20,000 nucleotides of DNA, from the IMG/VR virus record IMGVR_UViG_2718218115_000003. One strand, 5' to 3'. The stretch comes from an uncultured virus (IMG/VR IMGVR_UViG_2718218115_000003). Taxonomy: Duplodnaviria; Heunggongvirae; Uroviricota; Caudoviricetes. This document shows positions 609-14,691 of the stretch, one piece after another. The position numbers and the translations under genes are program-made. The first letter of the stretch is position 1. Each line of letters opens with the position of its first letter. The notes beneath the pieces are model-generated. The model saw nothing but the letters and a program-made list of their open reading frames with translations, was not told the origin of the DNA and did no database searches.

Positions 609-3600
609 ATGTCCATTTTAAAGCTCAAACCAATCACTAAAGACACAGTATTGGTTGCGATTTATTACATGATTGATTTCATGCATTATCAGAGCAATAT
701 TGCTCGATTTTTCCTTCTTATAATCCATAAGCAAATAGAACTTAACTTGTCTGTAGCAAAGCAAGCTTTAGCTTTTGCCCGTCAAGAAAGTGACTTTCCA
801 AAATTGGATGAAGTTATTGAAGTCTTATATAACGAGGCTATCAAAAACATTGATGAATCAGTTATCCAACACCTTAATAATAGTTCCAGAAATGTTATTG
901 AACAGCTAGAGACTATTGTCAGTCTTTTTGCTTGCGATAAAGAGCTAAAGGCTTACACCACTAAAAAGAATAAAACATTACAGGTTATTGGTCTTAAAGG
1001 CATCAAATTAACCAAAGCTAAAGAGTTTGACCCCTATGCCTTTTATTATCAGGGTGAAATTCTTGTACGCTCAAAACATCTTAAAGCTATTCCAGACTCT
1101 CTTCTTTCAGAAGATCAGCAACTTGTAAAAGGATTATTCTTACATGTATCAAATACCAATTCAGATGTGGAATCAGTTGGCGAATTTCGTCTCAGATCCA
1201 GAGGACCAATTGTTTCTACAACTGGATCAGGAAATGATGAATTTGAGGCTTCAGAAGCAATCAGAAATGATGGAGAAATTGGGGTACTCCGAGACAGTAA
1301 TTCTGGCTTATCAAAAAGTAATGATGCAAGTTTATCTAGCGTCCGAAATCCAAGAAATGAATCTTCAGATGGAAATAGTAGAGCCAGTACTAACCGGATT
1401 AACAGCAGCGGAGGCGGTGAACTATCTGGTAAGAGATCATCTCTTAAACGAGCAAGAGATCGATCAATTGTACAATCTGCTAAATCAGTTAGAGCTGCCA
1501 TAGATGAAAAGCTAGAAGCTCAATTAAAAGCAGATAATGTAGAAACAATTTGGAGCGATGCTTCAAATATTGACGCAGCTTTGCCATATCTGCAACTGGC
1601 ACAACGTGGTGATGTTTTAAAAACTGAAAAGCGGTTAATTGAGGAAAATAAGAAGGGTATTCTTTTTACTAACGGCACTGGTACAGGTAAAACCTTTACT
1701 GGGCTTGGAGTGGCAAAGCGTTTTATTAATGCTGGTCTCAAGAATATTTTGATTGTTACCTTGAATGATAAGATTGCAAATGACTTTGTAAAAAGCTCAA
1801 GTCCGTTGAATATCAAAGCTTACAAATTAAAAAGTATTAAAGATAACGGCGGTGATGAACACACAGTCGTGGTCACAACCTTTGCTAATTTTGGACAAAA
1901 TAAAAGTTTAGTTCACAAACATTGGGACCTGATATTAATTGATGAGGCACATACTCTATCGCAATCATCCGATGGTAAAGCAACTGCAGCATTAAACAAA
2001 CTAAGAGCATTAACCGGGCATTTGCATGGTTTTAGTGAATGGTTTGAAGATAAATTTGCTGATCAGATGCCAATTGAAGAGCTCGATGAAGATGGTAAAG
2101 AAACAGAACAATACCTAAGTGCTTATAACAAAATGCAGATCCTTCGAAATGAACAACGAAAGATCTGGAATTTGAATTGGAAACACCAGAAAAGTAAGGT
2201 CAAAGTTGTTTTCTTATCTGCTACGCCATTTAGTTATCACTTTTCACTTGATTGGGCGGAAGGCTATTTATTTGATTATATGTCTCCTTCAGTATCTGTT
2301 GATGACCAAGGTAATTTAGCTGAAGGCTTTAGTAAGGCTCGAGAGCACTTCTATATGGGAAATCTTGGATATCGAAAGCGATATGGTAAGTTGACGCGAC
2401 CAGAAGCAAAGGTGGATACAGGTGTACTTGAAAGACAGTTCGCCGAAAATCTTAAAAACACTGGTGCTATGTCTGGGCGGGATTTAGAAGTAAATTTTGA
2501 CTATGATCGTAAATTCATTCTAATTGGCTCTCGTGTTGGTGAACTTATTGATGAAGGTTTAACTTATCTTCGCAATGGTTATAAAGAAATAGAAGGGCAC
2601 AAAACACGAACTTTTGAAGAATGGGCTGCTCAAACTGGTAAACCAACAACAGGCTGGGGACGTCATGCCTCTATGCAAGAATATGATCGGCTATTCACTG
2701 GCAACCGATTTAAAAACATATACGAAATTATTGCAAAACGCTTTGATTACTTAGCAAGACGCCTTTTGTTAGAAGCTATTAAAGCTGAAGCTTGTGTTGA
2801 TATGGTGAAAAAGCACTTAGCATTAGGTCGTAAAGTAGTAATTTTTCATGACTATAACGAGGGCGGTGGTTTTGCACCTTTCTTGATTAGTAAGCTTGAT
2901 ATCGAAAAATATGAAAGCCCACTTAGAGAAGATATTGAGCTTGAATATAATGCATTCAAAGAAAATAGACCGGATCTAGTAAATCTCAATCTTGATTATG
3001 ATTCACCTGTTGAAACTTTAAAGAATGCATTTCCTAATGCTCTTTTATTTAATGGCCGTCTTTCAAAGCAACAACGTGAAACTAATGTAGCGTTATTTAA
3101 TACTGATGATAGCGGGCACGATATTCTCATTCTGCAGTCAGATGCTGGTTCTACTGGGATTAGCTTGCATGATACAACTGGTAAACACCAGCGAGTACTC
3201 ATTAATATTGGTCAACCAACAAAGCCAGCCAAGTTGAGACAGACGGAAGGGCGTATCTATCGAACCGGACAAGCATCAAATGCTATTCAGAGATACTTGA
3301 CTACTGGTACTGCATGGGAACGGGCTGCATTTGCAGACACGATTGCTGGACGCGCAGAAACAGTAGATAACTTTGCAAAAGGTGCTGATGCTGTAGTAAG
3401 TATCAAAGAAGCGTTAATTCAGGCTTATGAAGAAGCTAAATATGAAGAGCCAAGTCTAAATGATGGTATTGGCGGTAAAGCATATGATGAAGAAAATGCC
3501 CGTATTGCTAAGTTAACCCCATTTGATCAAGCACTAACATTCTACTATGCCAAAGGCAAACGTTCTGAAAGTCGTAATAACCGCGAAGGTAAGGAATGGT

Positions 3601-4439
3601 ATGCAACGCCTGAACCTCTAGGATTCAAAATGATTGAATGGGCAGGGGTACACACTGGCGATTCTGTGCTTGAGCCTAGTGCTGGTGATGGAGCTATTGG
3701 TCGTTTTGTTCCGCAGGATGTAGAGTTGACAATGATTGAACCGACTGAGTCTTTAGCTAGTCGTGCTCAAATGGCAAATACAGGTGCTAAAGTAATTGTT
3801 GATACATTCGAATCTTTAGAATCATTAAATAAGTACCATGCGATTGTGATGAATCCGCCATTTGGTCATGCTGGCACTTTGGCAATTCAACATATCAAGA
3901 AGGCTTTTGGTCATCTTTATGATGGTGGTCGGATTGTGGCCTTGGTACCACGTGGTTCGATGGATTCTAAAGTGGACGAATTTATTGATAGTACACCTGG
4001 TGCAATTCTGACAGCTGAAATCTGGTTGCCTCAATCGACCTTTAAAAATGCTGGTACCGCCGTTTCAACTCGTATCATCATTATTGAAAAACATGCAGGC
4101 TCTAATGATGTTCCAAAAACACGAGAATTAGACTTCACGCACCTTACAAGTGTAGAGGATCTATTTTCAGAAATTCGTGATATCGCAATGCCTCCTAGAA
4201 AACTACGTATTGATGAGCAGCTTGCTAAGTACGAACTTTATGTCAGAACTGAACGTAGTAAGTATGTTTTCAATGGTGACGGCGTTGATAAACCTCAGAT
4301 CAAGAATATCATGCTCAAATTCTGGGGTTCGGAAGTGAATGAGTTTGATGAAATTGTTATGCCTTATAATAAGTCTGCAGAAATCATCAAGAAGATTGAT
4401 GAATTTGAGCAAGAGAATGGCACTAGTCTAGCAGCTTAG
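609..4439 (+). CDS. DarB-like polyvalent protein: SF2 (strawberry-notch-like) helicase fused to a C-terminal N6-adenine DNA methyltransferase
   Basis: Helicase motifs: Walker A NGTGTGKT, Walker B DEAH, motif III SAT, STGISLHD and QTEGRIYRTGQ. MTase motifs from about 3590: WYATP, SAM-binding VLEPSAGDG, catalytic MNPPF. SD GAGGGA precedes the ATG. Confidence 0.85.
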   Translation: MSILKLKPITKDTVLVAIYYMIDFMHYQSNIARFFLLIIHKQIELNLSVAKQALAFARQESDFPKLDEVIEVLYNEAIKNIDESVIQHLNNSSRNVIEQLETIVSLFACDKELKAYTTKKNKTLQVIGLKGIKLTKAKEFDPYAFYYQGEILVRSKHLKAIPDSLLSEDQQLVKGLFLHVSNTNSDVESVGEFRLRSRGPIVSTTGSGNDEFEASEAIRNDGEIGVLRDSNSGLSKSNDASLSSVRNPRNESSDGNSRASTNRINSSGGGELSGKRSSLKRARDRSIVQSAKSVRAAIDEKLEAQLKADNVETIWSDASNIDAALPYLQLAQRGDVLKTEKRLIEENKKGILFTNGTGTGKTFTGLGVAKRFINAGLKNILIVTLNDKIANDFVKSSSPLNIKAYKLKSIKDNGGDEHTVVVTTFANFGQNKSLVHKHWDLILIDEAHTLSQSSDGKATAALNKLRALTGHLHGFSEWFEDKFADQMPIEELDEDGKETEQYLSAYNKMQILRNEQRKIWNLNWKHQKSKVKVVFLSATPFSYHFSLDWAEGYLFDYMSPSVSVDDQGNLAEGFSKAREHFYMGNLGYRKRYGKLTRPEAKVDTGVLERQFAENLKNTGAMSGRDLEVNFDYDRKFILIGSRVGELIDEGLTYLRNGYKEIEGHKTRTFEEWAAQTGKPTTGWGRHASMQEYDRLFTGNRFKNIYEIIAKRFDYLARRLLLEAIKAEACVDMVKKHLALGRKVVIFHDYNEGGGFAPFLISKLDIEKYESPLREDIELEYNAFKENRPDLVNLNLDYDSPVETLKNAFPNALLFNGRLSKQQRETNVALFNTDDSGHDILILQSDAGSTGISLHDTTGKHQRVLINIGQPTKPAKLRQTEGRIYRTGQASNAIQRYLTTGTAWERAAFADTIAGRAETVDNFAKGADAVVSIKEALIQAYEEAKYEEPSLNDGIGGKAYDEENARIAKLTPFDQALTFYYAKGKRSESRNNREGKEWYATPEPLGFKMIEWAGVHTGDSVLEPSAGDGAIGRFVPQDVELTMIEPTESLASRAQMANTGAKVIVDTFESLESLNKYHAIVMNPPFGHAGTLAIQHIKKAFGHLYDGGRIVALVPRGSMDSKVDEFIDSTPGAILTAEIWLPQSTFKNAGTAVSTRIIIIEKHAGSNDVPKTRELDFTHLTSVEDLFSEIRDIAMPPRKLRIDEQLAKYELYVRTERSKYVFNGDGVDKPQIKNIMLKFWGSEVNEFDEIVMPYNKSAEIIKKIDEFEQENGTSLAA
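1144..1503 (+). CDS. overprinted 119-aa acidic helical protein nested in the +1 frame of the helicase-MTase gene
   Basis: AAAGGA at 1128-1133, 10 nt before ATG 1144. The product is L/Q/E/M-rich and protein-like. It coincides with an S/R/G/N-rich low-complexity linker in the host frame. Confidence 0.6.
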   Translation: MYQIPIQMWNQLANFVSDPEDQLFLQLDQEMMNLRLQKQSEMMEKLGYSETVILAYQKVMMQVYLASEIQEMNLQMEIVEPVLTGLTAAEAVNYLVRDHLLNEQEIDQLYNLLNQLELP

Positions 4440-4458
4440 AAATCTTTTAAATATTTAA

Positions 4459-4490
4459 AAAAGAGGTATAAGAAAACTTATACCTCTTTT
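4459..4490 (+). terminator. rho-independent terminator, probably bidirectional
   Basis: AAAAGAGGTATAAG-aaaa-CTTATACCTCTTTT, a 14-bp stem 20 nt after the helicase stop. Confidence 0.85.
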
Positions 4491-4564
4491 GTATTGTTTA
4501 CATTTTAAATAGAATAACTTTATTATATTAAGATTCATTAATTTATTATATTTAAAGGAAAAAT

Positions 4565-5014
4565 ATGAAATTTGAAGAGTTAAAGAATTTATTAGCTAAT
4601 ACGGGCTTTTATAAGGTTGAAAATGCTGAAACATATGTAGCATTAGACGATATTGATTTGAAATTTCATTTAATAAATGAGACTCAAGTTGCCGATGATA
4701 GTCGTGATCGCACTATTTCAGCGATTAAAAATGCCTTTAGACAGGATATGCATAGTTTTAAAATCAGTGTTTTTCAATTAAATATTACTTATAATGGGGA
4801 GCTAGTTCAAAGTTTTGATATTCATAAAATTTCTGGTTTTGAATCATATACTGATGACAAATTAATTGAATTATACTTCCCAATTCAAAATGGTAAACTT
4901 ATATATACGCCGATTCCTGAAGATGATATTTTCAGACGAGCGATCATTCGTAATTTAAATTCTAAACAAGCTTTTGAAATACTTTCAGAGTCTTTCAGTC
5001 CATCAATTATTTAA
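4565..5014 (+). CDS. hypothetical protein, AT-rich moron
   Basis: 149-aa ORF with SD AAAGGA. Candidate sigma70 promoter TTTACA (4497-4502)-18 nt-TATTAT (4521-4526). Bracketed by terminators. Confidence 0.75.
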   Translation: MKFEELKNLLANTGFYKVENAETYVALDDIDLKFHLINETQVADDSRDRTISAIKNAFRQDMHSFKISVFQLNITYNGELVQSFDIHKISGFESYTDDKLIELYFPIQNGKLIYTPIPEDDIFRRAIIRNLNSKQAFEILSESFSPSII

Positions 5015-6928: not shown

Positions 6929-7216
6929 ATGTCTGATCATCAGGCAATTGAAGTCACAGTCACAACTTTTGCTAATAAAACTACCTTCTGGAGTGGTTTA
7001 GCAAGCGCATTTGGTTCTTTAACTTCAATTAATTGGTTGAGCTATACAGGTGCAATAGTGGCTGTTGTTGGCCTATTCATAAGTTTCATTTTTCAGTGGA
7101 GACGTGACCGCAGAGAACGTAAAGAAAGTGAATTACGTGAAAAAGAAAGCGAATTACGAATCAAAGCTTTAGAAGCTCTAGAGCAAGATAATTTACGAAA
7201 GAGGAAAGATGAATGA
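6929..7216 (+). CDS. putative holin
   Basis: 95 aa with hydrophobic segment(s) ending AIVAVVGLFISFIFQW and a highly charged tail (RRDRRERKESELREKESELR). ATGA overlap with the endolysin gene. Confidence 0.75.
   Translation: MSDHQAIEVTVTTFANKTTFWSGLASAFGSLTSINWLSYTGAIVAVVGLFISFIFQWRRDRRERKESELREKESELRIKALEALEQDNLRKRKDE
7121..7158 (+). repeat. 21-nt-period tandem repeat in the holin tail (KESELRE/KESELRI heptad)
   Basis: AAAGAAAGTGAATTACGTGAA followed by AAAGAAAGCGAATTACG. Confidence 0.8.
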
Positions 7217-7983
7217 AGTTAATTGAAAACAATGCTTGGCAGTATCTATCTGTTAAGTTACCCGCCGTAGGTGCATTCATCATGCTAATTTTATTGCCAG
7301 CACTACAATGGGGTGTTGATTATGAAGTTATTCCTGAAAAATATCATGCATTTGTTACTGGTACTTTGATGCTTGTTCTGTCATGGATTGGAAAGAAAAT
7401 TTCTCAACCACGACTTAATGGCCCGCAATTAACAGGCCAGTTAGTAGGGATCAATTCTTTATTGAATATCCCAACACCAACAAAGCCTGATGAATTAGCT
7501 TGGATTGCAGAAGCAAAAAAGCATCTTGGCCTTCAAGAAATACCTGGTAAACAGCATAACCCAACTATTTTAAAATGGCTCTCGGAGCTAAAGGCTTGGT
7601 GGGCTGACGATGAAACGGCTTGGTGTGGGACCTTCGTTGCACATTGCTTGAAATCAGCTGGAATTGCTTATCCTAAGCATTGGTACCGTGCATTGGATTA
7701 TGTGAATTATGGTACAAAATTAGCTAAACCCGCTTACGGTTGTGTAGCTATTAAAACTCGAAAGGGTGGTGGGCATGTTTGTTTTGTAGTTGGCCGTGAC
7801 AAAAAGTCTGGAAAGTTAGTATGCCTTGGAGGCAATCAGTCTAATAAAGTTTGTTATGCACTTTATAATGACTCTGACTTTCAAGAATTCAGATGGTATG
7901 GTCGTACAACTCAACCAGCTAGCAAACGTTACAACTTACCGCAATTAAGTGGCGTGACAGCAATTAGAGTTACTGAAGCATAA
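7213..7983 (+). CDS. endolysin, TIGR02594-like (NlpC/P60-CHAP fold), with an N-terminal two-TM holin-like domain
   Basis: WIAEAKKHLGLQEIPG, DDETAWCGTFV (catalytic Cys), GGGHVCFVVG (His) and LGGNQSN motifs. The N-terminal ~65 aa hold two hydrophobic helices. Confidence 0.85.
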   Translation: MKLIENNAWQYLSVKLPAVGAFIMLILLPALQWGVDYEVIPEKYHAFVTGTLMLVLSWIGKKISQPRLNGPQLTGQLVGINSLLNIPTPTKPDELAWIAEAKKHLGLQEIPGKQHNPTILKWLSELKAWWADDETAWCGTFVAHCLKSAGIAYPKHWYRALDYVNYGTKLAKPAYGCVAIKTRKGGGHVCFVVGRDKKSGKLVCLGGNQSNKVCYALYNDSDFQEFRWYGRTTQPASKRYNLPQLSGVTAIRVTEA

Positions 7984-9647: not shown

Positions 9648-9706
9648 TGAGCAAAAAATTGCTCAAAATTGATAAAATCCTTCGAAAGTGAGCAAAAAAT
9701 TGCTCA
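9648..9706. repeat. two identical 18-bp palindromic sites TGAGCAA-AAAA-TTGCTCA
   Basis: Copies at 9648-9665 and 9689-9706 (41-bp period). The second overlaps the umuC stop codon. Confidence 0.9.
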
Positions 9707-11002
9707 TTTAGTTATTAAAGGTAGTTCATCCCATTTAAATGGATTCTTAGTTAATTTGTCTCGTGACATTGACCAGTTGCGACCTGGTACATAACACGAA
9801 CTTATACCGAGTTTTTTCTTTCCGAATTTTGTGTGTACGTTCTCTAGTGTTTTCATCAATTGTTCTTTCTTTTCTATAGCTTCGAAATCTGTGAGCAGGT
9901 CATAAGTGTGACCTGTTTTGGGTTCTAGCCCAGTTAGTATCACACCGCACTTCTTATACTTAATACCTTCTTTAAAAATGTGAGATAGCATTTTTGTTGC
10001 AGCTTTTACGAAATCTAACGCACAATCTGTTGGTTGTGAAAATGAGCCGGTTATTGACTTGTTATAAAACGGTACATTTTCATCAAAAGGACTTGATTGA
10101 ACAAAAACAATAAGACAGCCGCATAATGATTCATCATCTCTCAATCTCTTACATGCTTCTTGTGCATGCATGGCTATTGCTTCTTGTAGGTCAATAAGTT
10201 CGGTAACTTTCGCACCAAAAGAACATGACTTAATAATTTGCTTTTTAGATGGCGGAGTGTCTTCAATTTCTAGGCAAGAGATGCCTTGTAGCTCGTTAAT
10301 AGTACGAGCCATAACAATAGAAAAGCGTTTTTGCATTTCACGTGGTTCAGCACAAGCTAGATCAAGCACTGTATTAATTCCCATGCTTTGCAACTTTTTT
10401 GCATGTTTACGGCCGACCCCCCAGACTTCACTCACATCTATTTGAGCAAAGTAATATTCTTTATTGCACGGATCCATGTTTACGAGATCGCAAACGCCGT
10501 TAAAGCCTTGATTTTTCTTAGCTATATGATTGGATATCTTTGCCTCCGTCTTGCTGCGACCAATACCTACGCACACGGGCAAACCAATCCATTTCCATAT
10601 TTTTAGGCGCATATCCTGAGCGACCTTTTCTAGGTCAAAATTTTTTTCATAAGCTGAAAAATCAACAAAACACTCATCTATTGAATATTTCTCAACTTCT
10701 TCATCAGTTACATACGATGCAAGAATCTTATGAAATCTGCGCGACATTTCAGCGTAAAGTTCATAATTGCTAGAGAGAACAATAACATTGTGTTTTTTTA
10801 CTATGTCTCTGATCTGGAATAATGGCACCCCCATTTTTATATTTAAATTTTTTGCTTCATTGCTGCGCGCAACGGCACATCCATCGTTATTTGACAAAAC
10901 GATGACTGGTTTATTGTTTAAACTTGGATTAAAGACTCGTTCACATGAGACGTACATGTTATTTACATCTATGAGAAAAAAGACTTTATCTTCATGTCTC
11001 AT
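9704..11002 (-). CDS. umuC: Y-family DNA polymerase V catalytic subunit
   Basis: [31 protein letters not shown] and C-terminal WSMSRDKLT. Start reassigned to ATG 11002 (ATGA overlap with the umuD stop). Confidence 0.95.
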
Positions 11003-11499
11003 GATTTTTTTCTTGTATTTTTTAGAATATAAGTAACTACACCCCAAATTATTAGTTCTTGCCCGTCATGAAGATGAATATCATCATAATCTGGGTTTTC
11101 AGCTTTTAACCAACGCTCATTTTCATCAATCATTAAGCGTTTAACAGTAAAATCATTATCTATAAGTGCAACAACAATATCGTTGTGTTTAGCATCAAGA
11201 CTACGATCAACAATCAACTCATCATCAATATCAATGCCAGCGTTAAGCATCGAAAGTGATGCCACTCTAACAATAAATGTTGCTTCTTCATTTTTAATTA
11301 GGTGCTCATTCATGTCGAGAGTTCGATCAACATAATCTTGAGCAGGAGAGGGAAAACCAGCTGAAACTTTTTCTATAGCTAAAGGTATTGAAAAAAAAGT
11401 AGTAGGTGAAACTAATTTTATGGATTCAACCTCACTCAATACCTTGCCAGCATTGAGATGTGGTTTAATTTCGATAATGGAATTGGGGATAATGCTCAT
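10999..11499 (-). CDS. umuD: DNA polymerase V accessory subunit (S24 peptidase)
   Basis: [11 protein letters not shown] autocleavage site, catalytic Ser (VASLSM) and Lys (FTVKRL). SD GGAG. Confidence 0.95.
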
Positions 11500-13409: not shown

Positions 13410-13460
13410 GTGTATCCCTGTGTGTATCCTTAAATAAAAATTGAAACGGTGGGGATACAA
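13410..13460. promoter_or_regulatory. putative integrase arm-type binding sites
   Basis: GTGTATCC twice in direct repeat (13410, 13422) and an inverted GGGATACA immediately before the integrase start. This is the usual P4-type layout. Confidence 0.6.
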
Positions 13461-13464
13461 AGAA

Positions 13465-14691
13465 ATGAAGCGTACAGAGATAAAGCGTCGTCCATTATCT
13501 GATACAGCACTAGCTAATCTTGAGCCTGAATCAAAGGAATACCGGGAACTGGACGGCAATGGTTTGTATTTTCGTGTCAAGCCCGATGGTAATAAGTCTT
13601 GGCAATTACGCTACAAAAAGCCTGATGGTAAATGGTCATGGTTAGGAATAGGTGGCTATCCTGAAATAGGTGGGCAATTGGCACGAAAGAAAGCACAAGA
13701 GTTAATTGCTGATATTGGTAAAGGTGAGAATCCAATCATCACTAAGCAAGAACGTAAGCGGAAAGAACTTGAAGATAACAATGCCACTTTTGAGGCACTG
13801 GCAAGGGAATGGTTAGATACCAAACAAAATAGATGGGTCGCAGATACGATGGTCCGAAACAAAGGGGCATTAGAAAAACATATATTCCCTGTTTTTGGTA
13901 AACGCCTATACACCACGATACGCCCGATTGAATGGATGAATCATTTAAAAGGGATACAACAAGAACATAAGATTTATGAGCAAGTAAACCGCATACGTGC
14001 TATGTGTCGAGATATTTACGACTATGCCAAAGTAACAGGACGTATTGATTACAACCCACTGGAGGGGCTGCATAAATTCTTAGAACAGGGCAAAAAAGAG
14101 AATATGGCTCATGTGGATGAAAAAGAATTACCGCAATTATTAAGGGCTATAGACAACTACCCAACACTTGATAGTCGCATCGGATTAAAGCTTTTATCTA
14201 TGCTGTTTTGCCGCCCTAGTGAATTGAGAGAGGCAACATGGGATGAGTTTGACCTAGAAAATTCTCTTTGGGAAATTCCTGAACACCGCATGAAAAAACG
14301 CCGTGAGCATATTATTCCGTTACCAACTCAAGCGGTGCAGTTATTAAATGAATTACGAGCTTTAAGTGGTAAATCAGAATACTTATTTCCTAGTCGGTCA
14401 AATAGCAATAAGCCTAAATCGGATACAGTATTTATTATGGCGTTACGGCGCTTGGGTTATGAGGGTAGACAGACACCGCACGGCTTTAGACATATCGCCA
14501 GTACCTTGCTTAACAACAAGGGTTTTGATGAAAGACATATTGAGGCGGCATTGGCGCATGTTAAAGATGGTGTGGCAGGGGTATATAACAAAGCTCAATA
14601 TCTGAATGATCGAAAGTACATTATGCAGTGGTACGCTGACCACTTAGAGCAATTGATGGATGATCAAATTATCCAATTTAAAAAAGCATGA
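13465..14691 (+). CDS. int: P4-family tyrosine integrase
   Basis: Arm-binding N-terminus (LSDTALANL...DGNGLYFRV...KSWQLRY...LGIGGYPEI). Catalytic residues R (CRPSE), K (RMKKRREH), HGFR, LAH and Y (GVYNKA). ATG at 13465. Confidence 0.95.
   Translation: MKRTEIKRRPLSDTALANLEPESKEYRELDGNGLYFRVKPDGNKSWQLRYKKPDGKWSWLGIGGYPEIGGQLARKKAQELIADIGKGENPIITKQERKRKELEDNNATFEALAREWLDTKQNRWVADTMVRNKGALEKHIFPVFGKRLYTTIRPIEWMNHLKGIQQEHKIYEQVNRIRAMCRDIYDYAKVTGRIDYNPLEGLHKFLEQGKKENMAHVDEKELPQLLRAIDNYPTLDSRIGLKLLSMLFCRPSELREATWDEFDLENSLWEIPEHRMKKRREHIIPLPTQAVQLLNELRALSGKSEYLFPSRSNSNKPKSDTVFIMALRRLGYEGRQTPHGFRHIASTLLNNKGFDERHIEAALAHVKDGVAGVYNKAQYLNDRKYIMQWYADHLEQLMDDQIIQFKKA

Follow-up and report, generated by a model that had tools for sequence, protein, structure and literature searches.

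Comparative evidence for an ancient, unannotated overlapping gene in the linker of a polyvalent phage helicase-methyltransferase gene

In phage lambda the spanin gene Rz entirely encloses the smaller gene Rz1, which is read in the +1 frame from start signals of its own; the two products cooperate, Rz1 being an outer-membrane lipoprotein of the lysis cassette. Two frames are also used in the overprinted genes of small viruses, such as A/B/K and D/E of phiX174, where one product is compositionally biased and disordered. Phages make two products from one region by frameshifting as well, for example in the tail-assembly chaperones. To our knowledge, tailed phages and bacteria have few long out-of-frame overlaps for which selection has been demonstrated, and such claims are often disputed. 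In phage P1 the Dar accessory proteins Ulx and DdrA are needed to load the Dar proteins into capsids. The subject of this work is a small open reading frame (ORF) found on 20,000 nucleotides (nt) of DNA of an uncultured virus assigned to the Caudoviricetes (IMG/VR record IMGVR_UViG_2718218115_000003; this whole stretch is called the window below). The nested ORF occupies positions 1144-1503 of the plus strand and is enclosed in a much longer one, called here the host ORF (609-4439, plus strand, 1276 amino acids, aa). Similarly to Rz/Rz1, the nested ORF is placed inside a larger gene, in its +1 frame, and is equipped with start signals of its own. The host ORF combines an SF2/SNF2-type helicase with an N6-type methylase and in this respect resembles the DNA methylase-helicase dyad of polyvalent proteins, to which DarB of phage P1 belongs (Iyer et al. 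2017, PMC5512222).

The preliminary description of this DNA had reported a stop-free +1-frame ORF with a Shine-Dalgarno (SD) sequence at a spacing of 10 nt, and its coordinates were confirmed. The nested ORF lies wholly within the host ORF and in the +1 frame relative to it, since (1144-609) mod 3 = 1; its stop codon is at 1501-1503 and its product is a protein of 119 aa and 14 kDa, predicted to be all-helical. The SD-like motif AAAGGA (1128-1133, plus strand) stands 10 nt ahead of the nested ATG, and a TAA stop in the nested frame is present at 1126-1128 (plus strand), five codons upstream of that ATG. The stop-free run around the nested ORF, 124 codons, is the longest of the +1 frame in the host ORF, the next ones being 60 and 53 codons. 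When the host protein of the window was kept fixed and its codons were redrawn, the +1 frame was open in only 1.8% of 5000 trials, hence the openness of this frame in the window exceeds chance.

Evidence that the nested frame is coding comes from the distribution of mutations. All 41 close viral contigs (92-100% protein identity) retain the nested ATG and the open frame, and in one of them the nested stop is replaced so that the ORF is four codons longer. Variable sites were counted by host codon position in 27 haplotypes over 609-2400, in an ungapped comparison. Upstream of the nested ORF (609-1143) the numbers at host positions 1, 2 and 3 were 22, 12 and 65, the pattern of ordinary coding DNA, and within 1144-1503 they were 31, 14 and 5. 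Host position 3 is dominant again in the four 90-nt bins spanning 1509-1868; past 1869 an indel in some loci breaks the ungapped comparison, and the pooled figure for 1504-2400 was disregarded. As host position 1 is the third position of the nested codons, the period of the variation changes over to that of the nested frame precisely where the nested ORF lies. The same was found among 139 unique full-length copies, in which pairwise differences per site follow the order of nested positions 3 > 1 > 2 in all four identity bins (0.144, 0.056 and 0.031 for positions 3, 1 and 2 at 85-95% identity). These patterns indicate purifying selection acting on the nested +1 frame, and from such comparisons it can be said that the ORF 1144-1503 is very probably a real coding gene.

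The start signals are conserved together with the frame, as one would ask of homologues following the preliminary description. Of the 139 unique copies, 124 have ATG and two have GTG at the aligned first position, and 122 have an SD-like tetramer within -18 to -4, compared with 17% of random windows. Conservation of the nested protein starts exactly at Met1. Weak mRNA structure at the start is the usual signature of an initiation site; here, in 81 of 85 loci, the 40-nt window at the nested start is predicted to fold more weakly, by about 3.8 kcal/mol, than windows elsewhere in the same ORF, with the dip centred on this start. No sigma-70-like promoter was found ahead of 1144 on the plus strand, so the nested product is presumably made by internal initiation on the late mRNA.

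A second line of evidence does not start from the nested gene at all, but from the helicase. A tblastn search with the helicase segment alone gave eight phage records, representing six distinct phages with hosts in Klebsiella, Serratia, Pseudomonas, Vibrio (two phages) and Ruegeria, and in 6/6 of these phages a +1-frame ORF of 119-130 aa ends at the helicase start. The six nested homologues begin with M-[YHF]-Q-[VA]-P-x-x-[VIQ]-W-N and have GAGG or AAGGA upstream. When the two frames of one and the same DNA were compared by BLASTP, the nested one gave the higher score in 21/21 pairs among seven phages, with 58-73 bits for the nested frame and no more than 20 bits for the host frame in distant pairs. 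A hidden Markov model (HMM) of the nested protein was then run over helicase-anchored loci, that is over the best 80 of 338 viral and the best 80 of 127 bacterial-genome relatives of the helicase. All 80 viral contigs (40 close ones and 40 at 39-62% identity) have a full-length nested match in the +1 frame and no stops in the host frame, and the nested match ends between -6 and +63 nt from the helicase match. Among the bacterial genome loci a nested match is present in 65/80, and in 64 of these it is in the +1 frame without host stops; four of the 15 unmatched loci had no more than 153 nt of upstream DNA, which leaves a +1-frame homologue in 64 of 76 assessable loci. Two of the 65 matches are weak or fragmentary (L265, L250), and that of L222 has lost register, apparently by an indel or frameshift within the giant ORF, its near-twin L214 being regular. 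Frequent loss of the +1 frame in homologues that keep the host frame would have spoken against a gene; the counts of 6/6, 80/80 and 64/76 speak for it. In a few lineages (L214, L222, L242, L238) an extra domain of 125-320 aa separates the nested gene from the helicase. The positive genome loci belong, according to their record labels, to alpha-, beta- and gammaproteobacteria, Acidobacteriota, Verrucomicrobiota, Planctomycetota, Kiritimatiellia, Campylobacterota, Negativicutes, Desulfobacterota and some Bacteroidota, and the replacements in the nested protein are conservative across GC (guanine and cytosine) contents of 0.30-0.69. A blastn comparison of the region with phage records gave no match.

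The product of the nested gene is predicted to be a compact helical protein. AlphaFold2, run with a 58-sequence alignment, gave seven helices with a mean local confidence (pLDDT) of 90.2 and a global score (pTM) of 0.82. In the window the protein has an isoelectric point (pI) of 4.05 and a net charge of -13, and contains neither cysteine nor a signal sequence. The preliminary description called the product acidic and helical: the helices hold for the predicted fold, and the acidity holds for the window but is not conserved across the family, in which net charge varies from -15 to +5 (median -6) and pI reaches 9.6 (median 4.74). Pfam, PHROGs and PDB sequence profiles contained no family or relative of the nested protein. 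Only noise-level fold matches were obtained, with Foldseek E values of at least 0.43 against PDB and BFVD and a best VIA-align Z of 5.0 (YpgQ); the ESM Atlas contains the nested sequence, and no usable neighbour was obtained from it. Nevertheless, the family is large. A profile search of 1.84 billion representatives gave 540 clusters (defined at 50% identity) at E <=0.001 and 418 at E <=1e-10, with 122 of the top 150 members not longer than 160 aa, and where the sources give any name it is just "hypothetical protein". It had been expected that standard annotation would miss the gene, and this is what the records show, as the giant coding sequence (CDS) is the sole annotation over the nested match in 8/8 of them (seven phages and one plasmid). 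No description of the nested gene was found by searches of the main texts of PubMed Central (PMC) and bioRxiv articles, nor is it described in the passages seen of the papers on ZX1, Lastavirus and AP-20-A. It is an unannotated overlapping gene of a new family, and an ancient one.

A small number of family members have another architecture. Six metagenomic proteins of 280-413 aa (P0225, P0202, P0179, P0172, P0230, P0146) carry the nested-family domain in frame with other domains. In P0225 and P0202 it follows a domain which their nearest relatives have upstream in the host frame, in P0172 and P0230 it stands in front of a DarB-like PHROG domain, and the partner domains include a conserved C-terminal domain of about 165 aa and of unknown family. 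These long forms are either natural non-overlapping forms or assembly frameshifts. Scans of viral contigs aimed at them showed the usual embedded arrangement in 17/17 loci inspected, and two metagenome scans for their context gave no match.

The same DNA read in the host frame gives a stretch of protein of different character. The preliminary description had noticed that the composition of the host frame switches over the interval, and this is correct: host residues 179-299 contain 52% of S+R+G+N and 18% of hydrophobic residues, in comparison with 15% and 42% in residues 1-178 and 23% and 31% in residues 300-1276. The S/R/G/N-rich linker proper (1152-1433, plus strand; residues 182-275) is predicted to be disordered and is poorly conserved. 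AlphaFold2 applied to a host-frame fragment left residues 182-275 without secondary structure and at pLDDT below 50, between ordered flanks, and no host-frame similarity between distant phages was found over these residues. The host linker is basic (pI 9.5) and the +1 product acidic, both being read from 1143-1505. Still, the host frame is stop-free in 139/139 unique copies, and the third frame in 0/139. When the nested protein was fixed and its synonymous codons were redrawn from local codon usage in 92 dereplicated loci, the host frame was open with a median probability of 0.0025 (maximum 0.205, below 0.05 in 71/92 loci). Real linkers contain 11.1% of hydrophobic residues, versus 17.1% in all redraws and 14.8% in the stop-free ones, and they are the less hydrophobic in 90/92 loci. 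Openness and low hydrophobicity relative to the redraws show that the host frame is selected to stay open and hydrophilic, not for a particular sequence. Judging from the comparison and from the structural model, most of this stretch would be a disordered tether selected mainly for the lack of stops and for low hydrophobicity.

The last part of the overlap is an exception. Host-frame BLASTP similarity is confined to the 3' end (1440-1505, plus strand; host residues of about 278-299), where conserved columns are found and where the host frame lies over the last nested helix. A predicted host helix with the motif KR..RDRSIVQSAKS (fragment residues 159-190) leads here into the helicase and overlies nested helix 103-117, and these last 22 or so host residues are constrained in both frames. 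The claim that both frames appear constrained was thus right as to dual coding and to the host frame being kept open, but the constraint is unequal, with the host sequence itself conserved only in this terminal segment.

In the window three frames are open at once over the interval, namely the host frame, the nested frame and an antisense one. The antisense ORF (1115-1501, minus strand, 128 aa) was considered as a third gene and rejected for lack of conservation: antisense frames are open in just 51/139 unique copies, and which of them is open differs between copies. The sites that vary most fall on the second codon position of this ORF, which therefore has the look of a by-product.

Linkage of the nested gene with the helicase module was seen from both sides. 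Besides the helicase-anchored loci, 30/30 loci found through the nested motif have a helicase HMM match downstream in the host frame, and the domain upstream of the linker differs between lineages. The nested gene and the helicase module are thus linked in both directions. Strict two-way linkage, with an upstream domain that varies, makes a role with the helicase-methylase the best guess about function. As to relative age, in 64/90 loci the rest of the giant ORF is closer in synonymous codon usage to the nested frame than to the linker frame (Wilcoxon p = 2e-8). Codon usage, the stronger conservation of the nested frame, the disorder of the host frame and the existence of stand-alone helicase-methylases together suggest that the small gene came first and that the tether was overprinted on it when the flanking genes fused.

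The explanation that we favour, and consider on balance slightly on the probable side as a whole, is as follows. The interval 1144-1503 very probably carries two messages, the +1 frame specifying the 119-aa seven-helix protein and the 0 frame a mostly disordered hydrophilic tether. The tether would join the variable upstream part to the SNF2 helicase-N6 methyltransferase module of a polyvalent protein, and the small protein would be initiated at its own SD sequence and ATG, where the late mRNA is predicted to be unstructured. Such a state could have arisen when neighbouring genes fused and the tether was printed over the pre-existing small gene. The small protein may serve the helicase-methylase module as an accessory partner, perhaps as a chaperone in assembly or packaging or as a regulator, and the overlap would ensure that the small gene travels with the module. 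The partner role by itself, which is suggested by the linkage and by analogy, we rate as plausible at somewhat under an even chance. A bolder form of the idea is offered tentatively: an ancient "gene within a tether", in which giant injected proteins were assembled by reading out of frame through a small gene whose folded 14-kDa product is needed by the module for loading, control or release, an arrangement held across phages of about ten phyla. If this were true, the small gene would never be separable from its client.

Among the competing explanations the one that survives best accepts the nested gene as real and gives its product an independent anti-host activity, as an acidic DNA mimic or another inhibitor of defence, the site in the linker being a matter of compactness and co-inheritance. 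The entire evidence on coding status applies to it equally, the window protein is strongly acidic with the family median also on the acidic side, and the gene neighbours an enzyme of anti-restriction type. Acidity, however, varies up to positively charged and basic members, no known mimic is present among the noise-level fold matches, linkage to one module is strict (80/80 and 30/30), and some family members are apparently fused in frame to polyvalent-protein domains. Strict linkage and the apparent in-frame fusions fit a role within the polyvalent system better than an independent one, and the fusions, if natural, would suit the partner idea; an independent activity is in our opinion the main rival, though less likely than a partner role.

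Highly improbable is the second alternative, that ribosomes on the host frame enter the +1 frame by a programmed frameshift, so that the upstream protein would also exist as a truncated isoform ending in the helical domain. Frameshifting is established in phages, and in a few database proteins (P0225 and P0202) the domain follows an upstream polyvalent domain in the same frame. Against this, the nested frame has its stop five codons before the ATG in the window, and in 7/26 distant loci an in-frame stop directly abuts the ATG, which argues against entry from upstream, as the shift would need to fall inside the most conserved N-terminal motif. Conservation beginning exactly at Met1 and the enrichment of SD-like motifs and of an unstructured start region speak in the same direction. 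The chance is slighter still that no +1 protein exists and that a constraint at the level of DNA or RNA, or the biased composition of the low-complexity linker, keeps the frame open: translation is without direct evidence, host composition alone leaves the +1 frame open with a probability of up to 0.78 in GC-rich relatives and an antisense frame is open in the window too, yet this explanation predicts neither the rank order of variation at nested positions, nor conservative replacements over the whole range of GC content, nor full-length HMM matches in one frame only, nor a confident fold, and the antisense and third frames are open in only 51 and 0 of the 139 copies.

Several points weigh against the dual-coding explanation and the partner role and should be set beside the evidence above. 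The coding claim rests on comparison. As many as 13 of the 139 copies have neither ATG nor GTG at the aligned first position, where the start may be offset, and the weak structure of the start region could partly stem from its conserved sequence, which is rich in purines. The interval 607-2300 is covered without differences by contigs of one RNA library, a coverage that cannot show a transcript or a frame and that may be DNA carry-over, and three raw RNA runs contained 0 reads of the prophage and hence were no test of expression. The survey of helicase relatives covers only the best-ranked ones. Eleven genome relatives of the helicase, ten of them from Bacteroidota and one from a Thiotrichales metagenome-assembled genome (L266), have no nested HMM match. 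Most of the eleven are stand-alone helicase-methylases of about 850-910 aa in which the linker is absent, hence the helicase-methylase can exist without the small protein; they may represent the unfused state. Physical linkage alone does not prove shared function, codon usage gives no more than a hint of relative age, and no identifying family, solved structure or fold is available from which a function could be read. Among the negative loci, the long linker of L270 contains a divergent nested candidate of weak score (E 0.007), and the stand-alone Bacteroidota enzymes L227, L228, L233, L234, L244, L248, L255, L256 and L259 start 25-45 codons before the helicase motif. As regards the RNA library, contig coverage in its assembly starts at 607, two bases before the host ORF, and 300-606 is empty, which is only a hint.

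The host protein consists of an N-terminal domain, the linker, the helicase and an N6-adenine-type methyltransferase, in that order. The helicase core (1629-3458, plus strand; residues of about 341-950) is recognised by Pfam ResIII with 46.5 bits (cut-off 22.5) and Helicase_C with 27.6 bits (cut-off 23.5). The methyltransferase domain (3585-4103, plus strand; residues of about 993-1165) contains an NPPF motif and matches PHROG DNA methyltransferase families with E down to 9e-24; Pfam MTS gives 18.1 bits, under its cut-off of 23.0. As a whole the host ORF matches positions 1351-2628 of the 3925 positions of the profile phrog_10691, a PHROG of giant phage proteins, and is one piece of a split polyvalent protein of the giant virion type. 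The giant protein, of more than 3700 aa in Klebsiella phage ZX1, is divided into separate ORFs in the present prophage, and the ORF at 3-533, matching phrog_5143 positions 543-698, is another polyvalent-protein piece. The helicase segment is 100% identical in one Acinetobacter nosocomialis record, and the surroundings of the host ORF are the end of an Acinetobacter prophage, with a PmgG-like head morphogenesis gene and with holin and lysozyme genes at 6929-7983 as neighbours. On the basis of this neighbourhood alone, the helicase-methylase may be packaged in the virion and protect the injected DNA from restriction. The region directly after the helicase-methylase ORF (4440-4650) is very AT-rich (GC of about 0.25) and is followed by a 149-aa ORF of unknown PHROG. 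Near the prophage end there are an umuD/umuC-like pair of error-prone polymerase genes (9704-11499, minus strand) and a tyrosine integrase gene (13441-14691).

Embedded out-of-frame genes are a known kind, and what is new here is an unnamed family with a confident new predicted fold. As cases of nested genes go, this one is unusually clean and unusually old, being conserved from Acinetobacter to Ruegeria and also in prophages of Negativicutes and Verrucomicrobia. It adds a missing gene to every genome with the nested-gene-bearing helicase-methylase module, and it points to a new component of a widespread counter-defence module, possibly delivered with the virion. Single-frame gene callers and family libraries systematically overlook genes of this sort. 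A folded protein and a disordered linker sharing codons constitute a natural model of such sharing, and the locus suggests that polyvalent proteins can grow by fusion across an intervening gene. The preliminary description, taken as a whole, is partly supported.

In comparison with known systems, the nearest to the host gene is the polyvalent dyad, and relatives of the host gene are part of multidomain proteins of at least 3700 aa annotated as DarB-like or PLxRFG. The preliminary name of a DarB-like helicase-methyltransferase is justified as far as the presence of both domains is concerned, but their order is opposite to that in P1 DarB, where the methylase (145-290) precedes the helicase (833-1517). 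The methylase region shares 25% identity with P1 DarB over 190 aa (pairwise E 4e-6), and the host protein can be called DarB-like only loosely. In the passages seen of PMC5512222 the words "overlap" and "frameshift" and any nested gene are unmentioned. Ulx and DdrA of P1, small proteins with genes next to darB or darA and an annotation as anti-restriction accessory factors, are the favoured functional analogy for the nested protein, although they are separate and not embedded genes. As relatives of it they were rejected (hhalign probability 0.08% and 0.06%), and no match to the nested family was found in the first 50 kb of P1, which include darB. The P1 record (L195) holds another gene within a gene at a Dar-type locus, iddB, which lies inside ddrB on the opposite strand (26577-26975).

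The nested product of the window resembles the mimics Ocr and ArdA in being small, acidic and placed in an anti-restriction gene neighbourhood. In contrast to them the negative charge is not conserved in its family. Neither Ocr nor ArdA is present among its fold matches, which are all at noise level. The likeness to Rz/Rz1 concerns the arrangement of the genes. Unlike Rz1, the nested product has no cysteine or lipobox and no signal sequence and looks soluble and helical, and its gene is located in the linker of a helicase-methylase, apart from the holin and lysozyme genes. Here, moreover, conservation is higher in the embedded frame, the host frame being predicted disordered, and the arrangement is spread over many bacterial phyla. 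With the overprinted genes of phiX174 the locus shares one stretch of DNA read in two frames, of which one gives a compositionally biased and disordered product. It differs from them in its setting, since the nested gene occurs in tailed phages and prophages of about 50-90 kb and belongs to a family of 540 clusters, and also in the direction of overprinting, as codon usage suggests that the long host reading, and not the short gene, is the younger.

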